Shown piece by piece: positions 4,578-7,570 of a stretch of 18,119 bases of DNA. Under the pieces are notes generated by a model that was given only the letters and a program-made list of their open reading frames with translations, did not search any database and had not been told where the DNA came from. The stretch comes from a virus (taxonomy: Duplodnaviria > Heunggongvirae > Uroviricota > Caudoviricetes). The first letter of the stretch is position 1. Every line of letters begins with the position of its first letter. The stretch lies in IMG/VR virus record IMGVR_UViG_3300043803_001772, one strand, 5' to 3'. A program made the position numbers and the translations under genes.

Positions 4578-4654
4578 TGGTGGGCCAAACCGGACTTGAA
4601 CCGATAACCAATGAATTATGAGTTCACTGCTCTAACCAATTGAGCTATTGGCCC
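4578..4654 (-). tRNA. tRNA CAT, probably Ile2 (lysidine type)
   Basis: canonical cloverleaf GGGCCAA...TTGGCCC-A-CCA, loop CTCATAA; C4:G69 and C5:G68 match the E. coli TilS determinants. Confidence 0.85.
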
Positions 4655-4664
4655 AAGTTAAAAT

Positions 4665-4737
4665 TGGAGCGGGTCCGAACTTTGCATTTCGCCTTTTAGT
4701 CTGGTAGACTAACGTGCTCTCTTTACACCTGACCCGC
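4665..4737 (-). tRNA. atypical tRNA-Gly-like, anticodon ACC
   Basis: perfect GCGGGTC/GACCCGC acceptor, U73, CCA; perfect TTAGT/ACTAA anticodon stem, loop CTACCAG; D-loop AAAGAGA lacks GG; T-loop TGCAAA. Confidence 0.7.
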
Positions 4738-4752
4738 ATTTAAATTCAAATA

Positions 4753-5040
4753 GGAAGGACTAATGATTACCTCCAAGTTTCAGAATCACGACTGGTTATT
4801 CATCCACAATCCACACGGGTAATTACTCCTTGTGTTAATGACTGATGGGATTTTGTTTTCCCCACAACGGGCTACGATTTATCATATATTTTAGCTACGG
4901 TCCCGTTACGCTCAAATTTGGGGTTGAACGACCTCAAATTCTCCATAGACTTACCCTCCATGATTCCTACTCCAACCAATATACAACGTTTTTCAACGCC
5001 ATATATTGTGCGTTACAACTAAACTAATCGTTGTTCCGCC
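4753..5040 (-). ncRNA. unassigned ~290-nt structured RNA (element X)
   Basis: 14-bp GAAA-capped hairpin with 3 G.U pairs (4977-5008); 9-bp long-range helix 4959-4967/4782-4790; further hairpins; imperfect 5'/3' end pairing; lies between two tRNAs just after a boxA-like site. Confidence 0.6.
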
Positions 5041-5051
5041 ACTATCTTAAA

Positions 5052-5064
5052 TTGTTAAAGAACT
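5052..5064 (-). promoter_or_regulatory. boxA-like antitermination site
   Basis: AGTTCTTTAACAA versus E. coli rrn boxA TGCTCTTTAACA; identical copies at 6408-6420 and 7214-7226. Confidence 0.6.
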
Positions 5065-5073
5065 ATTGAAAAA

Positions 5074-5351
5074 TGGTAGGCGTGAGTGGATTCGAACCAC
5101 CGCTTTACAGATTTTCGTACCACTATAATTTTCATTACACATTTCTGTTTTGTGGTCTGGACTTTCTCTTCATCATAACATTTCTGTTTTAGATGTTTGC
5201 CGTTAAGTCTCTACACCTTCTCATTTCTGAGCTTGGCTCGGGATTGGCAGTTAAGCTTTCCCCGAATTTGACAAATTCTACTTTAGAGATTTCTCTCTAA
5301 GCACTCAATTTACGCTAAAGTCTGTTGACTCTTCCGCTGGTCTACACGCCC
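5074..5351 (-). tRNA. tRNA-Leu(UAA) interrupted by a group I intron; short variable loop
   Basis: exons 5351-5318 and 5115-5074 join to give stem ACAGA/TCTGT with loop CTT|AAAA; acceptor GGGCGTG/CACGCCT-A-CCA; canonical T-loop. Confidence 0.88.
5116..5317 (-). mobile_element. group I self-splicing intron, 202 nt, IC3-like, no ORF
   Basis: 5' exon ends in U with ACTT/GAGT P1; P AATTCGGGGAAA, Q AATCCCGAGCC, R GTGTAGAGACT, S GAAAGTCC; P3 TTTGTC/GGCAAA; terminal G; several GAAA tetraloops. Confidence 0.9.
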
Positions 5352-5362
5352 ATTTAAATTAC

Positions 5363-5374
5363 TTACAAAGAACT
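5363..5374 (-). promoter_or_regulatory. boxA-like site
   Basis: AGTTCTTTGTAA between the promoter and the Leu(UAA) tRNA. Confidence 0.5.
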
Positions 5375-5392
5375 ATTACTTACTACTCTTTC

Positions 5393-5420
5393 ATCTTACC
5401 ACATCTTACTTACTTGTCAA
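5393..5420 (-). promoter_or_regulatory. sigma70-like promoter of the tRNA island
   Basis: TTGACA-N16-TAAGAT with TGTGG before the -10. Confidence 0.75.
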
Positions 5421-5438
5421 ACAAGTTTTTCAGAAAAA

Positions 5439-5515
5439 TGGTAGCTAGGGTCAGATTCGAACTGACACTGGACACTTTTTGAGAGTGCTGCCTCCTGCCG
5501 TTGGGCTACCTAGCC
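5439..5515 (-). tRNA. tRNA-Leu(CAA), short variable loop
   Basis: GGCTAGG/CCTAGCT-A-CCA, loop CTCAAAA, TTCGAAT T-loop, 5-nt variable region. Confidence 0.9.
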
Positions 5516-6172
5516 ATTTAAAATTTTTGATTCAATCAACTTATAAAGTCTACTATAATTTCTTCCGTTTTCAATTCCTAAATTTTTTAAAGTTTGATTA
5601 ATATTTCCCTTACATTTATGATACATATCAATCAATTCATTGTCATCTACTTTTTTAGTAGAAGTAAATTTTATATTTTTTGCGCAAAAAGTATCTGTTT
5701 GACTATGACAATTTGGACATAAAAATCTCAAGTTTTCTAATCTTTGGTCTGTTGATATACCATTTATATGGTCTAATTGTAAATTTAATTTTTTATTATT
5801 CCAAAATCCCAAATTAGAACATAATGTACATTTATACTCAATTAAATTTTTTTTCTTTATTAGATTTCTAATGTATGATTTTGAAAATTTACTATTCTCT
5901 ATAAAGATTTCATTTTTATTTCTTTCAGATAATCTATCATCATCCAATAAAGTTTTACCTTTGCTCCATAACATACCTGTAAAATGTGAAATATCAATAT
6001 TAAGATTTGATATTTCTTTTTTTATTCTAGAGTGGGTTGAACCACTATATGGTATACCAAGTCTTTTAATTACTTGGGTATAAGATAAAGATTTTTTTGT
6101 AGCATCTATCAAATCAGACTCAGTATAAATTTGTTTTTTCCTCATACTAATAAATAGTATATTGGAAGACAT
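5510..6172 (-). CDS. free-standing HNH endonuclease
   Basis: LQLDHINGISTDQRLENLRFLCPNCHSQT motif with CxxC pairs; the stop codon overlaps the first bases of tRNA-Leu(CAA); the true start may be the second Met (6145). Confidence 0.9.
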   Translation of the reverse strand: MSSNILFISMRKKQIYTESDLIDATKKSLSYTQVIKRLGIPYSGSTHSRIKKEISNLNIDISHFTGMLWSKGKTLLDDDRLSERNKNEIFIENSKFSKSYIRNLIKKKNLIEYKCTLCSNLGFWNNKKLNLQLDHINGISTDQRLENLRFLCPNCHSQTDTFCAKNIKFTSTKKVDDNELIDMYHKCKGNINQTLKNLGIENGRNYSRLYKLIESKILNG

Positions 6173-6201
6173 AAATACAAATTATTTTGTGTCTGCTAAA
6201 A

Positions 6202-6213
6202 TTTCAATGAACT
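6202..6213 (-). promoter_or_regulatory. boxA-like site (variant)
   Basis: AGTTCATTGAAA directly after the Ile(UAU) tRNA. Confidence 0.4.
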
Positions 6214-6221
6214 ATTAAAAA

Positions 6222-6315
6222 TGGTGGTTCCGCCCGGATTCGAACCGAGACCGTGCTCAAATCTAGAGCTTATCAACGTTATAAGCGTTGCGTTCTACCG
6301 TTAAACTACGGAACC
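6222..6315 (-). tRNA. tRNA-Ile(UAU) with a long variable arm
   Basis: GGTTCCG/CGGAACC-A-CCA, stem CAACG/CGTTG, loop CTTATAA, 24-nt variable region with a GCTC-TAGATTT-GAGC hairpin. Confidence 0.85.
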
Positions 6316-6321
6316 ACTAAA

Positions 6322-6400
6322 TGGTAGCGGGGACAGGATTTGAACCTGTGACCTCCTGGTTATGAGCCAAGCGAGCTGATCCGGGCTGCTCCACCCCGCA
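6322..6400 (-). tRNA. initiator tRNA-fMet (CAT)
   Basis: TGCGGGG/CCCCGCT with a 1:72 mismatch, A11:U24, overall close to bacterial fMet; the 29:41 pair is U-A rather than G-C. Confidence 0.9.
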
Positions 6401-6407
6401 AATTGTT

Positions 6408-6628: not shown

Positions 6629-6635
6629 ATTAAAA

Positions 6636-6712
6636 TGGTTGCTGAAGCGTAGGAATCGCACCTACTTAATGAGTGGTTATGAGCCACCCCCAGATCTAAC
6701 CTGCCGCCAGCT
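6636..6712 (-). tRNA. atypical initiator-like tRNA, anticodon CAT
   Basis: A1xA72 mismatch, A11:U24, loop CTCATAA, perfect GTAGG/CCTAC T-stem with loop TGCGATT, 2-nt bulge in the 3' acceptor strand, CCA. Confidence 0.65.
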
Positions 6713-6719
6713 ATTAAAT

Positions 6720-6854
6720 TGTGTTGGTTTCGATAATACACGGAGGTTTATTTCAACGAACTAGCGTTTTTTATTGACTCACAATTATCATTTTTTTCTC
6801 AGGTTTGTACGCTTTTCAGCGTTCCATCAATCTGATACTCTATTTTCCACCAAC
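6720..6854 (-). ncRNA. unassigned structured RNA (element Y2)
   Basis: closed by GTTGGT/ACCAAC; ACGCT-GAAA-AGCGT hairpin at 6809-6822; shares ATAGAGTAT and a 12-nt 3' end with Y1. Confidence 0.45.
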
Positions 6855-6860
6855 TAAAAT

Positions 6861-6873
6861 TATCAAAAGAACA
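6861..6873 (-). promoter_or_regulatory. boxA-like site (variant)
   Basis: TGTTCTTTTGATA between Y1 and Y2. Confidence 0.4.
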
Positions 6874-6884
6874 AATTAAAAATT

Positions 6885-7040
6885 GTGTTGGGTGTGTTTA
6901 TTGAATACTCTATCCACCCAACAAACAGAGTATACCATATGCTAACCCCGCAACCAAGAAGTTTTTTAAGAGACTTCCAACTCTAGGGGCGTTTTGGTTA
7001 TTTACCCTCCACCATTCCGTTTCTTTTAAGCAACGGACAA
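6885..7040 (-). ncRNA. unassigned structured RNA with a 3' H-type pseudoknot (element Y1)
   Basis: TCCGTT/AACGGA and CCCC/GGGG-GAAGT/ACTTC hairpins; interleaved 7-bp and 8-bp perfect stems at 6887-6933. Confidence 0.5.
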
Positions 7041-7046
7041 ACAAAA

Positions 7047-7121
7047 TGGTAGTCTGTAGGGGAATCGAACCCCTCTTACCGGAGTGAAAATCCAGTGTCC
7101 TAGCCGATAGACGAACAGACC
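7047..7121 (-). tRNA. tRNA-Glu(UUC)
   Basis: GGTCTGT/ACAGACT-A-CCA, loop TTTTCAC, TTCGATT T-loop. Confidence 0.92.
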
Positions 7122-7128
7122 GTTAAAA

Positions 7129-7205
7129 TGGTGGCCCCGGTGGGACTCGAACCCACGACCAAAAGCTTAAAAGGCTTCTGCTACTACCAACTGAGCTACA
7201 AGGCC
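7129..7205 (-). tRNA. tRNA-Lys(UUU)
   Basis: GGCCTTG/CGGGGCC-A-CCA, loop CTTTTAA, TTCGAGT T-loop. Confidence 0.92.
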
Positions 7206-7213
7206 ATTAAAAT

Positions 7214-7226
7214 TTGTTAAAGAACT
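7214..7226 (-). promoter_or_regulatory. boxA-like site
   Basis: AGTTCTTTAACAA between the promoter and tRNA-Lys. Confidence 0.6.
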
Positions 7227-7238
7227 TACTACTTTTTT

Positions 7239-7266
7239 ATCTTACCACACATTCTTAACTTGTCAA
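7239..7266 (-). promoter_or_regulatory. sigma70-like promoter
   Basis: TTGACA-N16-TAAGAT with TGTGTGG before the -10. Confidence 0.78.
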
Positions 7267-7270
7267 CTAT

Positions 7271-7378
7271 TTCTTTGTTCTTTGTTGGTGACCCCCTTCG
7301 GTTAAAGGCCGAGGCAGTTCCGCCATACGTAGATGTTCTAGAGGAGTGCTTCTCCCACCGTGCTTAAAGAACAAAGAA
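7271..7378 (-). ncRNA. 108-nt element with perfect 13-bp terminal inverted repeats (element W)
   Basis: TTCTTTGTTCTTT/AAAGAACAAAGAA enclose several short GC-rich hairpins; has its own upstream promoter. Confidence 0.5.
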
Positions 7379-7399
7379 TCGTTTACTTACTACTTCTTT

Positions 7400-7427
7400 A
7401 TCTTAACATTTAATTTTCAAAGATCAA
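7400..7427 (-). promoter_or_regulatory. sigma70-like promoter driving element W
   Basis: TTGATC-N16-TAAGAT followed by the same AGTAGTAAGT leader as the promoters at 5393 and 7239. Confidence 0.65.
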
Positions 7428-7495
7428 CAACTTTCTTTCAAAAGTTTTGAGGTAACATATAAATATATAAAAATATTAGTAAATTACCGAAAAAG

Positions 7496-7570
7496 TGGTA
7501 CCCCCATTAGGATTTGAACCTAAACAAAGGCTTTAGAAGAACCTTGTGCTATCCATTACACTATGAGGGC
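7496..7570 (-). tRNA. tRNA-Arg(UCU)
   Basis: GCCCTCA/TGGGGGT-A-CCA, loop CTTCTAA, TTCAAAT T-loop. Confidence 0.92.

Follow-up and report, generated by a model that had tools for sequence, protein, structure and literature searches.

The minus strand of positions 4538-7570 in the virus record IMGVR_UViG_3300043803_001772 (the whole 18,119-nucleotide (nt) stretch of which is referred to as the window) carries an RNA island that is probably a cluster of transfer RNA (tRNA) and stable-RNA operons of an uncultured, A+T-rich lake phage. Clusters of this kind are already known from phages; what is unusual here are virus-only tRNA scaffolds, an RNA resembling the manA motif that occurs at very high depth in RNA contigs, and punctuation in the style of ribosomal RNA (rrn) operons. 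All parts of the island lie on the minus strand. They comprise eight standard tRNAs, one of them split by an intron, four sigma-70 promoters, three exact copies of a boxA-like 12-mer, one terminator and a gene for an HNH endonuclease, which is the single credible open reading frame (ORF) within the island (Table 1). Three additional tRNA genes (TLa, TLb and TLd) have non-standard scaffolds, and three units (A1, B1 and X) are supported as folded RNAs of a non-tRNA type by their sequence conservation and covariation. Some 20 IMG/VR contigs, the longest of 171 kb, contain homologous islands that are strongly mosaic; comparison phage loci are designated by L-numbers.

In TLb, the acceptor stem has 7 base pairs (bp) and the anticodon stem 6 bp, with YUCAUAA/C as its loop; the D stem (2 bp) and the T stem (5 bp) are capped by invariant loops, the 8-nt UUCAGCAA and GGCAGCA, respectively, and the gene ends in A73-CCA. 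A search pattern based on the loops matched 44 viral contigs and 103 metagenome stretches, and 32 distinct sequences passed the cloverleaf stem test, 23 of them with an ACCA end. Matches in L045 and L075 were false and were discarded. ARAGORN scans of 12 of these loci placed the gene within a tRNA array each time, and the G+C content of the phages ranges from 31 to 57%. In an alignment of 15 diverse members, 93.6% of the cells were paired and 17 out of 20 pairs change on both sides; none of 500 shuffles equalled this pairing, and slid controls reached 26-42%. No real match was detected in 185,579 species genomes, in which all 11 pattern matches lacked the T stem and the CCA end and lay in non-tRNA sequence, and none at all in 50,697 cultured-phage records. 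The TLb elbow scaffold appears to be virus-specific.

Several lines of evidence bear on the identity of TLb. The pair G2:C71 is present in 14 and C3:G70 in 12 of the 15 members, together with A73 and the anticodon CAU; these four features are Met identity elements known from E. coli work. Among nine complete islands, seven bear TLb and lack a canonical elongator Met tRNA, and the two lacking TLb bear a Met tRNA of the GGCUAYG type in the TLb slot. When the anticodon was left free, the same two loops were also found with Thr-CGU, Thr-UGU and Asp-GUC-like anticodons, all in tRNA arrays of unrelated phages. In L067, the alternative-elbow genes supply Thr isoacceptors missed by ARAGORN, thereby completing the Thr set. 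TLb is most likely a working elongator Met tRNA.

TLa carries compensatory changes in the T, anticodon, D and acceptor stems and has a homologue in Bacillus phage G, annotated there as tRNA-Met. This phage G gene (L105:1509-2023; NC_023719 411855-412368) shares the compact D hairpin and the irregular acceptor stem of TLa but has a standard T loop; it adjoins a gene annotated 'tRNA-other (tta)' and the phage transfer-messenger RNA (tmRNA). In TLd, the acceptor stem (GG:CC to AA:UU) and the anticodon stem are each doubly compensated, and the Gly identity features G1:C72, C2:G71, G3:C70, U73, C35 and C36 are retained. A 7-bp acceptor stem (irregular in TLa), a 7-nt anticodon loop, a discriminator base followed by CCA, and covariation were found in all three genes. 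Most likely, TLa is a second initiator-like CAU tRNA and TLd a Gly tRNA for GGU, both of them working, and TLa, TLb and TLd are presumably aminoacylated. Low-depth RNA contigs were also observed in which the end of TLd is joined back to its start (4737 to 4665, with 7 extra letters), which may reflect tandem copies in relatives or circular forms.

The anticodons correspond to the codon usage of the phage. In 15 ORFs of the window, ATA accounts for 38% of the Ile codons, TTA plus TTG for 63% of Leu, AGA for 59% of Arg, AAA for 76% of Lys, GAA for 89% of Glu and GGT for 59% of Gly. The codons of the standard tRNAs are AGA, AAA, GAA, AUA, UUA, UUG and AUG, and with the ACC anticodon of TLd (for GGT) included, the tRNAs of the island read exactly the favoured codon set. 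Recoding of AUA and UUR, considered in view of Leu tRNAs without and a UAU tRNA with a long arm, was rejected, as ATA, TTA and TTG align with conserved Ile and Leu residues of RmlB homologues; since ATA stands at invariant Ile positions (GFIG, YNIGG) of RmlB structures, the genetic code is standard.

Two other explanations of the odd tRNAs have to be weighed. The first, a hybrid which we regard as possible but clearly not as the leading one, assumes that they do translate and that the rebuilt elbow evades a host or phage nuclease recognising the standard elbow. Both loops are invariant across phages of such different G+C content and absent from cells, which suggests selection on the elbow, and host tRNA degradation has been published as a driver of viral tRNA acquisition, in work cited within PMC9964418; nevertheless, most tRNAs of the same island retain the standard elbow. 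The second spells out a decoy and counter-defence idea put forward in an earlier interpretation of the window made without database searches (the sequence-only reading) and is unlikely: the odd-elbow RNAs and A1 would have no part in translation and would act as decoys, sequestering anticodon nucleases of the host or further defences directed at tRNAs, and the standard tRNAs would replace cleaved host tRNAs. Phage tRNAs that neutralise tRNA-cleaving defences are indeed known, intact 7-nt anticodon loops sit on the remodelled bodies, and A1 displays a Lys-like CCUUUAA loop that is invariant in nine relatives. However, one and the same slot holds either TLb or a canonical elongator Met tRNA, the Met and Gly identity elements and the CCA ends are retained although conservation of the acceptor end would be unnecessary in a decoy, the anticodons fit the favoured codons down to ACC for GGT, and the TLb scaffold completes tRNA sets with Thr and Asp anticodons. 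Codon match, slot replacement and the use of several anticodons favour working tRNAs over decoys, and this would make the counter-defence reading of the tRNA-like genes the less likely one. In the form given by the sequence-only reading, neither the decoy or regulatory RNAs nor the counter-defence system is supported.

Element X is a multibranched RNA in which 16 out of 87 predicted pairs show double changes across three subclades. The manA family (RF01745) is the best non-tRNA Rfam match in the window (14.6 bits) and recurs in the other two subclades of X (22.0 bits in L061 and 17.6 bits in L103). According to cmscan, X and manA RNA share the same order of elements, namely a GUG..GAA..AA bulge, a UAA-G junction, a GAAA-capped helix and a GGN-A...UCC hairpin. 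On these grounds X would quite probably be a distant, enlarged relative of manA RNA. X gave no Rfam match to GOLLD or ROOL, and the window gave none to other Rfam families (ribozymes, GOLLD, ROOL, RNase P, 6S) at E values up to 5-10. Two further assignments were rejected: a tmRNA, as none was reported by ARAGORN and there is no G3-U70, and a coding region, as the 28-codon frame is broken in L007. Matches to the X anchor pattern in L100 and L104 turned out to be glycine-rich coding repeats and were discarded.

In four river or freshwater metatranscriptome runs from four studies, the k-mer depth was 3,500-13,000 over X in comparison to 2-100 in neighbouring parts, X thus exceeding its flanks 100- to 1000-fold. 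DNA carry-over would give even cover of the island, so the excess over X is RNA, and the depth points to very high accumulation. One RNA contig of 296 nt corresponds exactly to 4756-5051, and in another, 5051 runs into 4748 with only one additional letter between them. This junction marks defined ends of X and derives from either a circle or template switching of the reverse transcriptase. The HNH gene and most tRNAs had little RNA-contig cover, which has no bearing on their expression. It is very improbable that X is a cis-acting, riboswitch-like leader of the manA type controlling a downstream gene. The resemblance to manA, which was first described as an element of the 5′ untranslated region (UTR) (PMC2864571), would speak for such a role even below the threshold, but X is followed only by TLd, one tRNA and the terminator without any ORF, and the 296-nt contig starts and ends within X, the two ends of which are joined by the junction. 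True manA RNAs have been reported to assemble into RNA-only decamers and into a 60-mer cage (bioRxiv 10.64898/2026.07.01.735769). It is conceivable, albeit rather doubtful, that X is no regulator but a structural RNA of an enlarged manA type, produced in very large quantity from a tRNA operon, which in the course of infection assembles itself into closed particles of RNA alone and may also be circularised, and that beside it phage translation runs partly on the virus-only UUCAGCAA / GGCAGCA tRNA scaffold.

Unit A1 contains the hairpin TCGG-CCUUUAA-CCGA, the stem of which shows CG to UA and GC to AU compensation in nine loci; its flanking stem covaries in the same loci. As for TLd, low-depth RNA contigs join the end of A1 to its start (7369 to 7284, with 4 extra letters), and this joint may stem from tandem copies in relatives or from circular forms. 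Unit B1 consists of a covarying 5′ hairpin, for which four different paired sequences occur in 11 loci, and an invariant core. It further contains an H-type pseudoknot in which ATACTCT/AGAGTAT is interleaved with GTTGGGTG/CACCCAAC and a C:G pair is compensated to U:A. The RNA contig depth of B1 is moderately raised (44-140 versus 2-13 alongside). Searching about 2 Mb of phage loci with nhmmer profiles of X, B1 and A1 yielded no copies outside this phage clade except diverged B1 in L051, L068 and L103.

Decaying tRNA pseudogenes and spacer debris left by recombination hardly account for the extra units: the island is strongly mosaic between relatives and Y2 and TLc lack thermodynamic or comparative support, but compensatory changes in A1, B1, X, TLa, TLb and TLd, loops that are invariant across wide divergence and the very high depth of X in RNA-library contigs refute decay for six out of eight units and leave it standing only for Y2 and perhaps TLc. 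The sequence-only reading had announced three elbow-altered tRNA-like genes and about five structured units of a non-tRNA type. The former are real and conserved, with compensatory change in place of decay; among the latter, A1, B1 and X were borne out, TLc is a weak case and Y2 did not hold up. The same reading would have fallen if the non-tRNA units had lacked conservation or expression as discrete RNAs and the atypical tRNAs had been decaying at random. Instead, A1, B1 and X are conserved, compensatory change marks the atypical tRNAs, and X appears in RNA-library contigs as a discrete piece of high depth.

The four promoters have a common layout consisting of a −35 box, a 16-nt spacer and TGnTAAGAT. 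The leader AGTAGTAAGT follows exactly after P1, P2 and P4 and is diverged after P3. None of 200 shuffles gave an equal number of matches to the −10-plus-leader pattern, and in the A1 alignment the −10 box and the leader of P1 are invariant in nine relatives. A weaker TAAGAT-plus-leader copy was observed at 8930-8950 of the window, upstream of small ORFs between the SPOUT gene and the island; in view of this copy, the promoter type may not be exclusive to RNA operons. The boxA-like sequence GTTCTTTAACAA has three exact copies, all in sense orientation, and looser ones adjoining P1 and P4. Every promoter is followed by a boxA-like GUUCUUUAACAA element, which is exact for P2 and P3 and a variant for P1 and P4. 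Across nine relatives, each island contains two to six sense copies of the 9-mer core and no antisense copy, compared to zero to two copies outside the island (~20-30 kb per locus, both strands). The element agrees with the E. coli boxA consensus and lies behind promoters of untranslated operons, directly so for P2 and P3; these sites may act in Nus-type antitermination.

In the mechanism that we propose, four host-type promoters (sigma-70, extended −10) would start untranslated transcripts, and transcription would stop at the single terminator. The transcripts would then be cut up by host tRNA-processing enzymes, presumably RNases, yielding the eight standard tRNAs, the three tRNAs with non-standard scaffolds and three or more folded RNAs other than tRNAs (A1, B1 and X). 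The RNA factory envisaged by the sequence-only reading agrees well with the single strand, the repeated cassettes of promoter plus boxA-like site, the terminal terminator and the single protein gene, and its four matching promoters were likewise recovered. Its seven boxA-like sites are reached only by counting loose variants in addition to the three exact copies.

Standard tRNAs were called by ARAGORN and with the Rfam tRNA model RF00005 at a gathering threshold of 29 bits. Both methods concur on seven tRNAs with RF00005 scores of 51-71 bits, which pass the threshold. The intron-split tRNA-Leu(UAA) is the eighth and completes the number of near-canonical tRNAs given in the sequence-only reading; its intronless allele in L005 scores 59.4 bits and also passes. 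The tRNA(CAU) at 6400-6322 is called initiator-like because of its U1xU72 mismatch. The 94-nt UAU tRNA is 100% identical across 15 loci, where X diverges down to 78%. A second, unrelated UAU tRNA body (93-nt paralogues in L005 and L006) bears the same extra arm, and between the two paralogues the stem of this arm covaries and the loop UAGAUUU is unchanged, with GAU at its centre. No phage UAU tRNA with a long extra arm was found among cultured phages. In close relatives, the Leu-CAA and Leu-UAA tRNAs come in two sizes, 76-78 nt with a short arm and 84-88 nt with a long one, and annotated Leu tRNAs of the short-arm kind exist in cultured phages of Streptomyces, Erwinia and Salmonella as well. 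The Ile2-like tRNA(CAU) at 4654-4578 gives an antisense match to the Rfam family Plastid-ycf2 5′UTR, the region of which overlaps plastid trnI-CAU.

The cluster harbours two selfish elements: the HNH gene, which encodes a homing endonuclease, and a group I intron that occupies the classic U34/A35 site of tRNA-Leu(UAA). The 76-nt intronless allele in L005 is identical to the two window exons joined, which fixes both the splice junction and the intron at 5317-5116. The end of the 5′ exon (ACUU) pairs with GAGU in the intron, the 5′ splice site following a U paired to G, and the last base of the intron is G. The RF00028 gathering score, the U:G splice site, the terminal G and the exact empty-site allele are all those of a group I intron. 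An RNA contig with an exact 202-nt skip was rejected as proof of splicing, since it derives from a diverged relative and may represent an intronless allele. Some close relatives carry the intron and others lack it; in L011 (12374-12559 and its tRNA) it measures 258 nt in comparison to 202 nt, with an insertion in a peripheral element. The stop codon of the HNH gene sits within the opening bases of tRNA-Leu(CAA). The gene encodes the motif domain of HNH homing endonucleases and is sporadic, being missing from L001, L003 and L018. HNH gene and intron are each patchy among close relatives, as expected of mobile elements. The Rfam, Pfam and PHROG scores together with the ORF check confirm that the intron and the HNH gene had been recognised correctly, the latter as the only convincing protein gene.

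Some observations weigh against our interpretation of the island. X stays below the manA gathering score of 55.2 bits, and TLa, TLb and TLd have no match to RF00005 even at E 5. As a folded RNA, TLc is weakly supported and Y2 is unsupported (z −0.62; near-identical relatives only). The RNA evidence consists of assembled contigs with one depth figure per contig that sums close relatives, so that abundances are approximate and ends indirect; standard RNA sequencing moreover under-samples tRNAs and is silent on the expression of the tRNA-like genes. Finally, the boxA-like motif could be an RNA processing site instead of an antitermination signal. This is a live alternative because the inferred 5′ end of X coincides exactly with the 3′ edge of a boxA-like copy; it also fits the preference of RNase E (purine, any base, cut, A/U, U, U).

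Table 1: Features of the RNA island, its upstream neighbours and related genes in comparison loci. Positions refer to the window unless a locus is named; z, z value.
Feature	Position	Strand	Evidence and remarks
tRNA-Arg(UCU)	7496-7570	minus	ARAGORN; Rfam 59.2 bits
Promoter P1: TTGATC, 16 nt, TGtTAAGAT, then leader AGTAGTAAGT	7400-7427	minus	sequence; leader pattern
Unit A1, ~75-nt tRNA-sized multi-helix RNA, closed by 13-bp flanking stem	7271-7378	minus	9 loci; z −2.52
Promoter P2: TTGACA, 16 nt, TGgTAAGAT	7239-7266	minus	sequence; leader pattern
boxA-like GTTCTTTAACAA, copy 1	7214-7225	minus	exact match
tRNA-Lys(UUU)	7129-7205	minus	ARAGORN; Rfam 64.2 bits
tRNA-Glu(UUC)	7047-7121	minus	ARAGORN; Rfam 53.9 bits
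Unit B1 (Y1 of the sequence-only reading)	6866-7030	minus	11-locus alignment
Y2, partial repeat of the ends of B1	6716-6865	minus	only 98-100% identical relatives; z −0.62
TLa, initiator-like CAU tRNA; compact 5-bp D hairpin, irregular acceptor stem, T loop UGCGAUU, CCA end	6636-6712	minus	compensation
TLb, elongator-Met-like CAU tRNA; alternative elbow, A73-CCA	6557-6628	minus	pattern search, covariation
TLc, ~83-nt unit; conserved closing stem, variable interior	6470-6552	minus	two variants keep CGCCCG(G)/C(C)GGCG; z −0.84
Promoter P3: TTGACA, 16 nt, TGaTAAGAT	6432-6459	minus	sequence
boxA-like GTTCTTTAACAA, copy 2	6408-6419	minus	exact match
Initiator-like tRNA(CAU)	6322-6400	minus	ARAGORN; Rfam 56 bits; U1xU72 mismatch, 1:72 pair flagged non-standard
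tRNA-Ile(UAU), 94 nt; extra arm with 7-nt loop UAGAUUU showing GAU	6222-6315	minus	ARAGORN; Rfam 62.5 bits
Free-standing HNH homing endonuclease	5510-6172	minus	Pfam 23 bits vs 21.4; phrog_10822 167 bits
tRNA-Leu(CAA), 77 nt; short variable arm, G1-U72, A73	5439-5515	minus	ARAGORN; Rfam
Promoter P4: TTGACA, 16 nt, TGgTAAGAT	5393-5420	minus	sequence; leader pattern
tRNA-Leu(UAA); exons 5351-5318 and 5115-5074, split between U34 and A35	5074-5351	minus	ARAGORN with introns allowed
Group I intron, 202 nt, no ORF	5116-5317	minus	Rfam RF00028 74.8 bits vs cut-off 50
boxA-like GTTCTTTAACAA, copy 3, directly 5′ of X	5052-5063	minus	exact match
Element X, ~304-nt multibranched RNA, manA-like below threshold	4748-5051	minus	covariation; Rfam; RNA contigs
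TLd, Gly(ACC) tRNA; non-standard D and T region, U73-CCA	4665-4737	minus	double compensation; z −2.92
tRNA(CAU), Ile2-like	4578-4654	minus	ARAGORN; Rfam 71.3 bits
Intrinsic terminator closing the island	4538-4559	minus	8-bp stem, then T run
SPOUT (SpoU/TrmH-like) 2′-O-methyltransferase	9203-9745	minus	Pfam SpoU_methylase 82.4 bits vs 29.7; upstream of island
83-amino-acid zinc-ribbon ORF	10044-10295	minus	C-x-C...C-x-x-C pattern
Thr-anticodon (CGU, UGU) versions of TLb scaffold	L067:7223-7285 and 7303-7365; L210:1387-1449; L221:5939-6001		
Asp-GUC-like versions of TLb scaffold	L214:7982-8044; L226:3607-3669		

The window was found almost letter for letter in lake-water metagenomes, and no cultured phage is close to it. 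Regions B and C gave no blastn match among cultured phages except that of TLa to phage G. A virion structural protein near the island finds its cultured-phage matches mostly in cyanophages (135 of 179 records, ~33% identity), and other neighbours are phage-like as well, including 2OG-Fe(II) oxygenases and rhamnose-synthesis genes. Two adjoining 2OG-Fe(II) oxygenase genes occupy 3-1413 on the minus strand. A four-gene sugar-nucleotide block at 11720-16272, comprising an NAD-dependent epimerase gene (minus strand) followed by RmlA-, RmlD- and RmlB-like genes (plus strand), suggests phage-directed synthesis of dTDP-rhamnose or a related sugar. As to the two upstream neighbours named in the sequence-only reading, the SPOUT methyltransferase is clearly backed by its Pfam score; its nearest NCBIfam model is TrmH (41.8 bits, far under the cut-off), and no equivalog was reached. 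The DksA/TraR-like protein was not confirmed: the ORF at 10295-10044 matched no Pfam family, DksA/TraR (PF01258) included, even at E 10. A language-model look-up gave feature scores of 0.87-0.88 against viral clusters in which PF01258 occurs, and this provides a lead to a TraR-like nature but no more.

A phage tRNA cluster is commonly taken for a simple codon supplement, and the usual tools list nothing in it beyond the standard genes. The alternative-elbow scaffold is invisible to ARAGORN and to the Rfam tRNA model, conserved across widely differing G+C contents and provided with at least Met, Thr and Asp anticodons. If such tRNAs are charged and used, the supposedly universal contact between D loop and T loop would be dispensable in nature. 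This would raise the question of how such molecules are handled by RNase P, the CCA-adding enzyme, EF-Tu and the ribosome, and it would be relevant to the evasion of tRNA-targeting immunity and to designing orthogonal tRNAs. Given the RNA-only cages reported for manA, X offers a natural, highly expressed manA-like RNA for probing the biological role of this type. A boxA-like element in a phage tRNA operon would carry rrn-style antitermination over to viral stable-RNA operons.

Individual parts of the island have counterparts in known systems. The tRNA-Leu(UAA) group I intron of cyanobacteria and plastids is likewise compact and ORF-less and has the same U34/A35 site, U-G 5′ splice site and terminal G; in contrast, the intron described here resides in a phage Leu tRNA with a short variable arm and is sporadic among close relatives. 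The boxA of E. coli rrn operons reads GCUCUUUAACAA, and the phage 12-mer is identical to this consensus at 11 out of 12 bases. As in Nus-dependent rrn antitermination, the motif closely follows promoters from which long untranslated operons are transcribed and recurs further inside them, whereas the phage copies belong to a tRNA operon and one of them coincides with an RNA end. GOLLD and ROOL often lie beside tRNA genes. X resembles these RNAs (PMC12286853) in being large, non-coding and phage-associated but is much shorter, with 304 nt compared to roughly 580-800 nt. Like manA, which is known from cyanophages, it comes from an aquatic phage with mostly cyanophage virion-protein matches; it differs in its length, which exceeds that of manA by ~110 nt and includes a 104-nt insertion and a duplicate of the hairpin, and in lying in a tRNA operon and not in a 5′ UTR. 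The tRNA region of T4 contains eight tRNAs, two small stable RNAs and the homing endonuclease gene segB. Together with that of T5, it shares with the island tRNAs serving the codon bias of the phage, co-transcribed extra stable RNAs, a homing endonuclease within the cluster and mosaic content. The sequence similarity to T4, T5 and cultured phages generally is limited to single tRNAs, and the island differs from the T4 and T5 regions by its four cassettes of promoter plus boxA-like site, three tRNAs with non-standard scaffolds, a group I intron in a tRNA and a 300-nt manA-like RNA.

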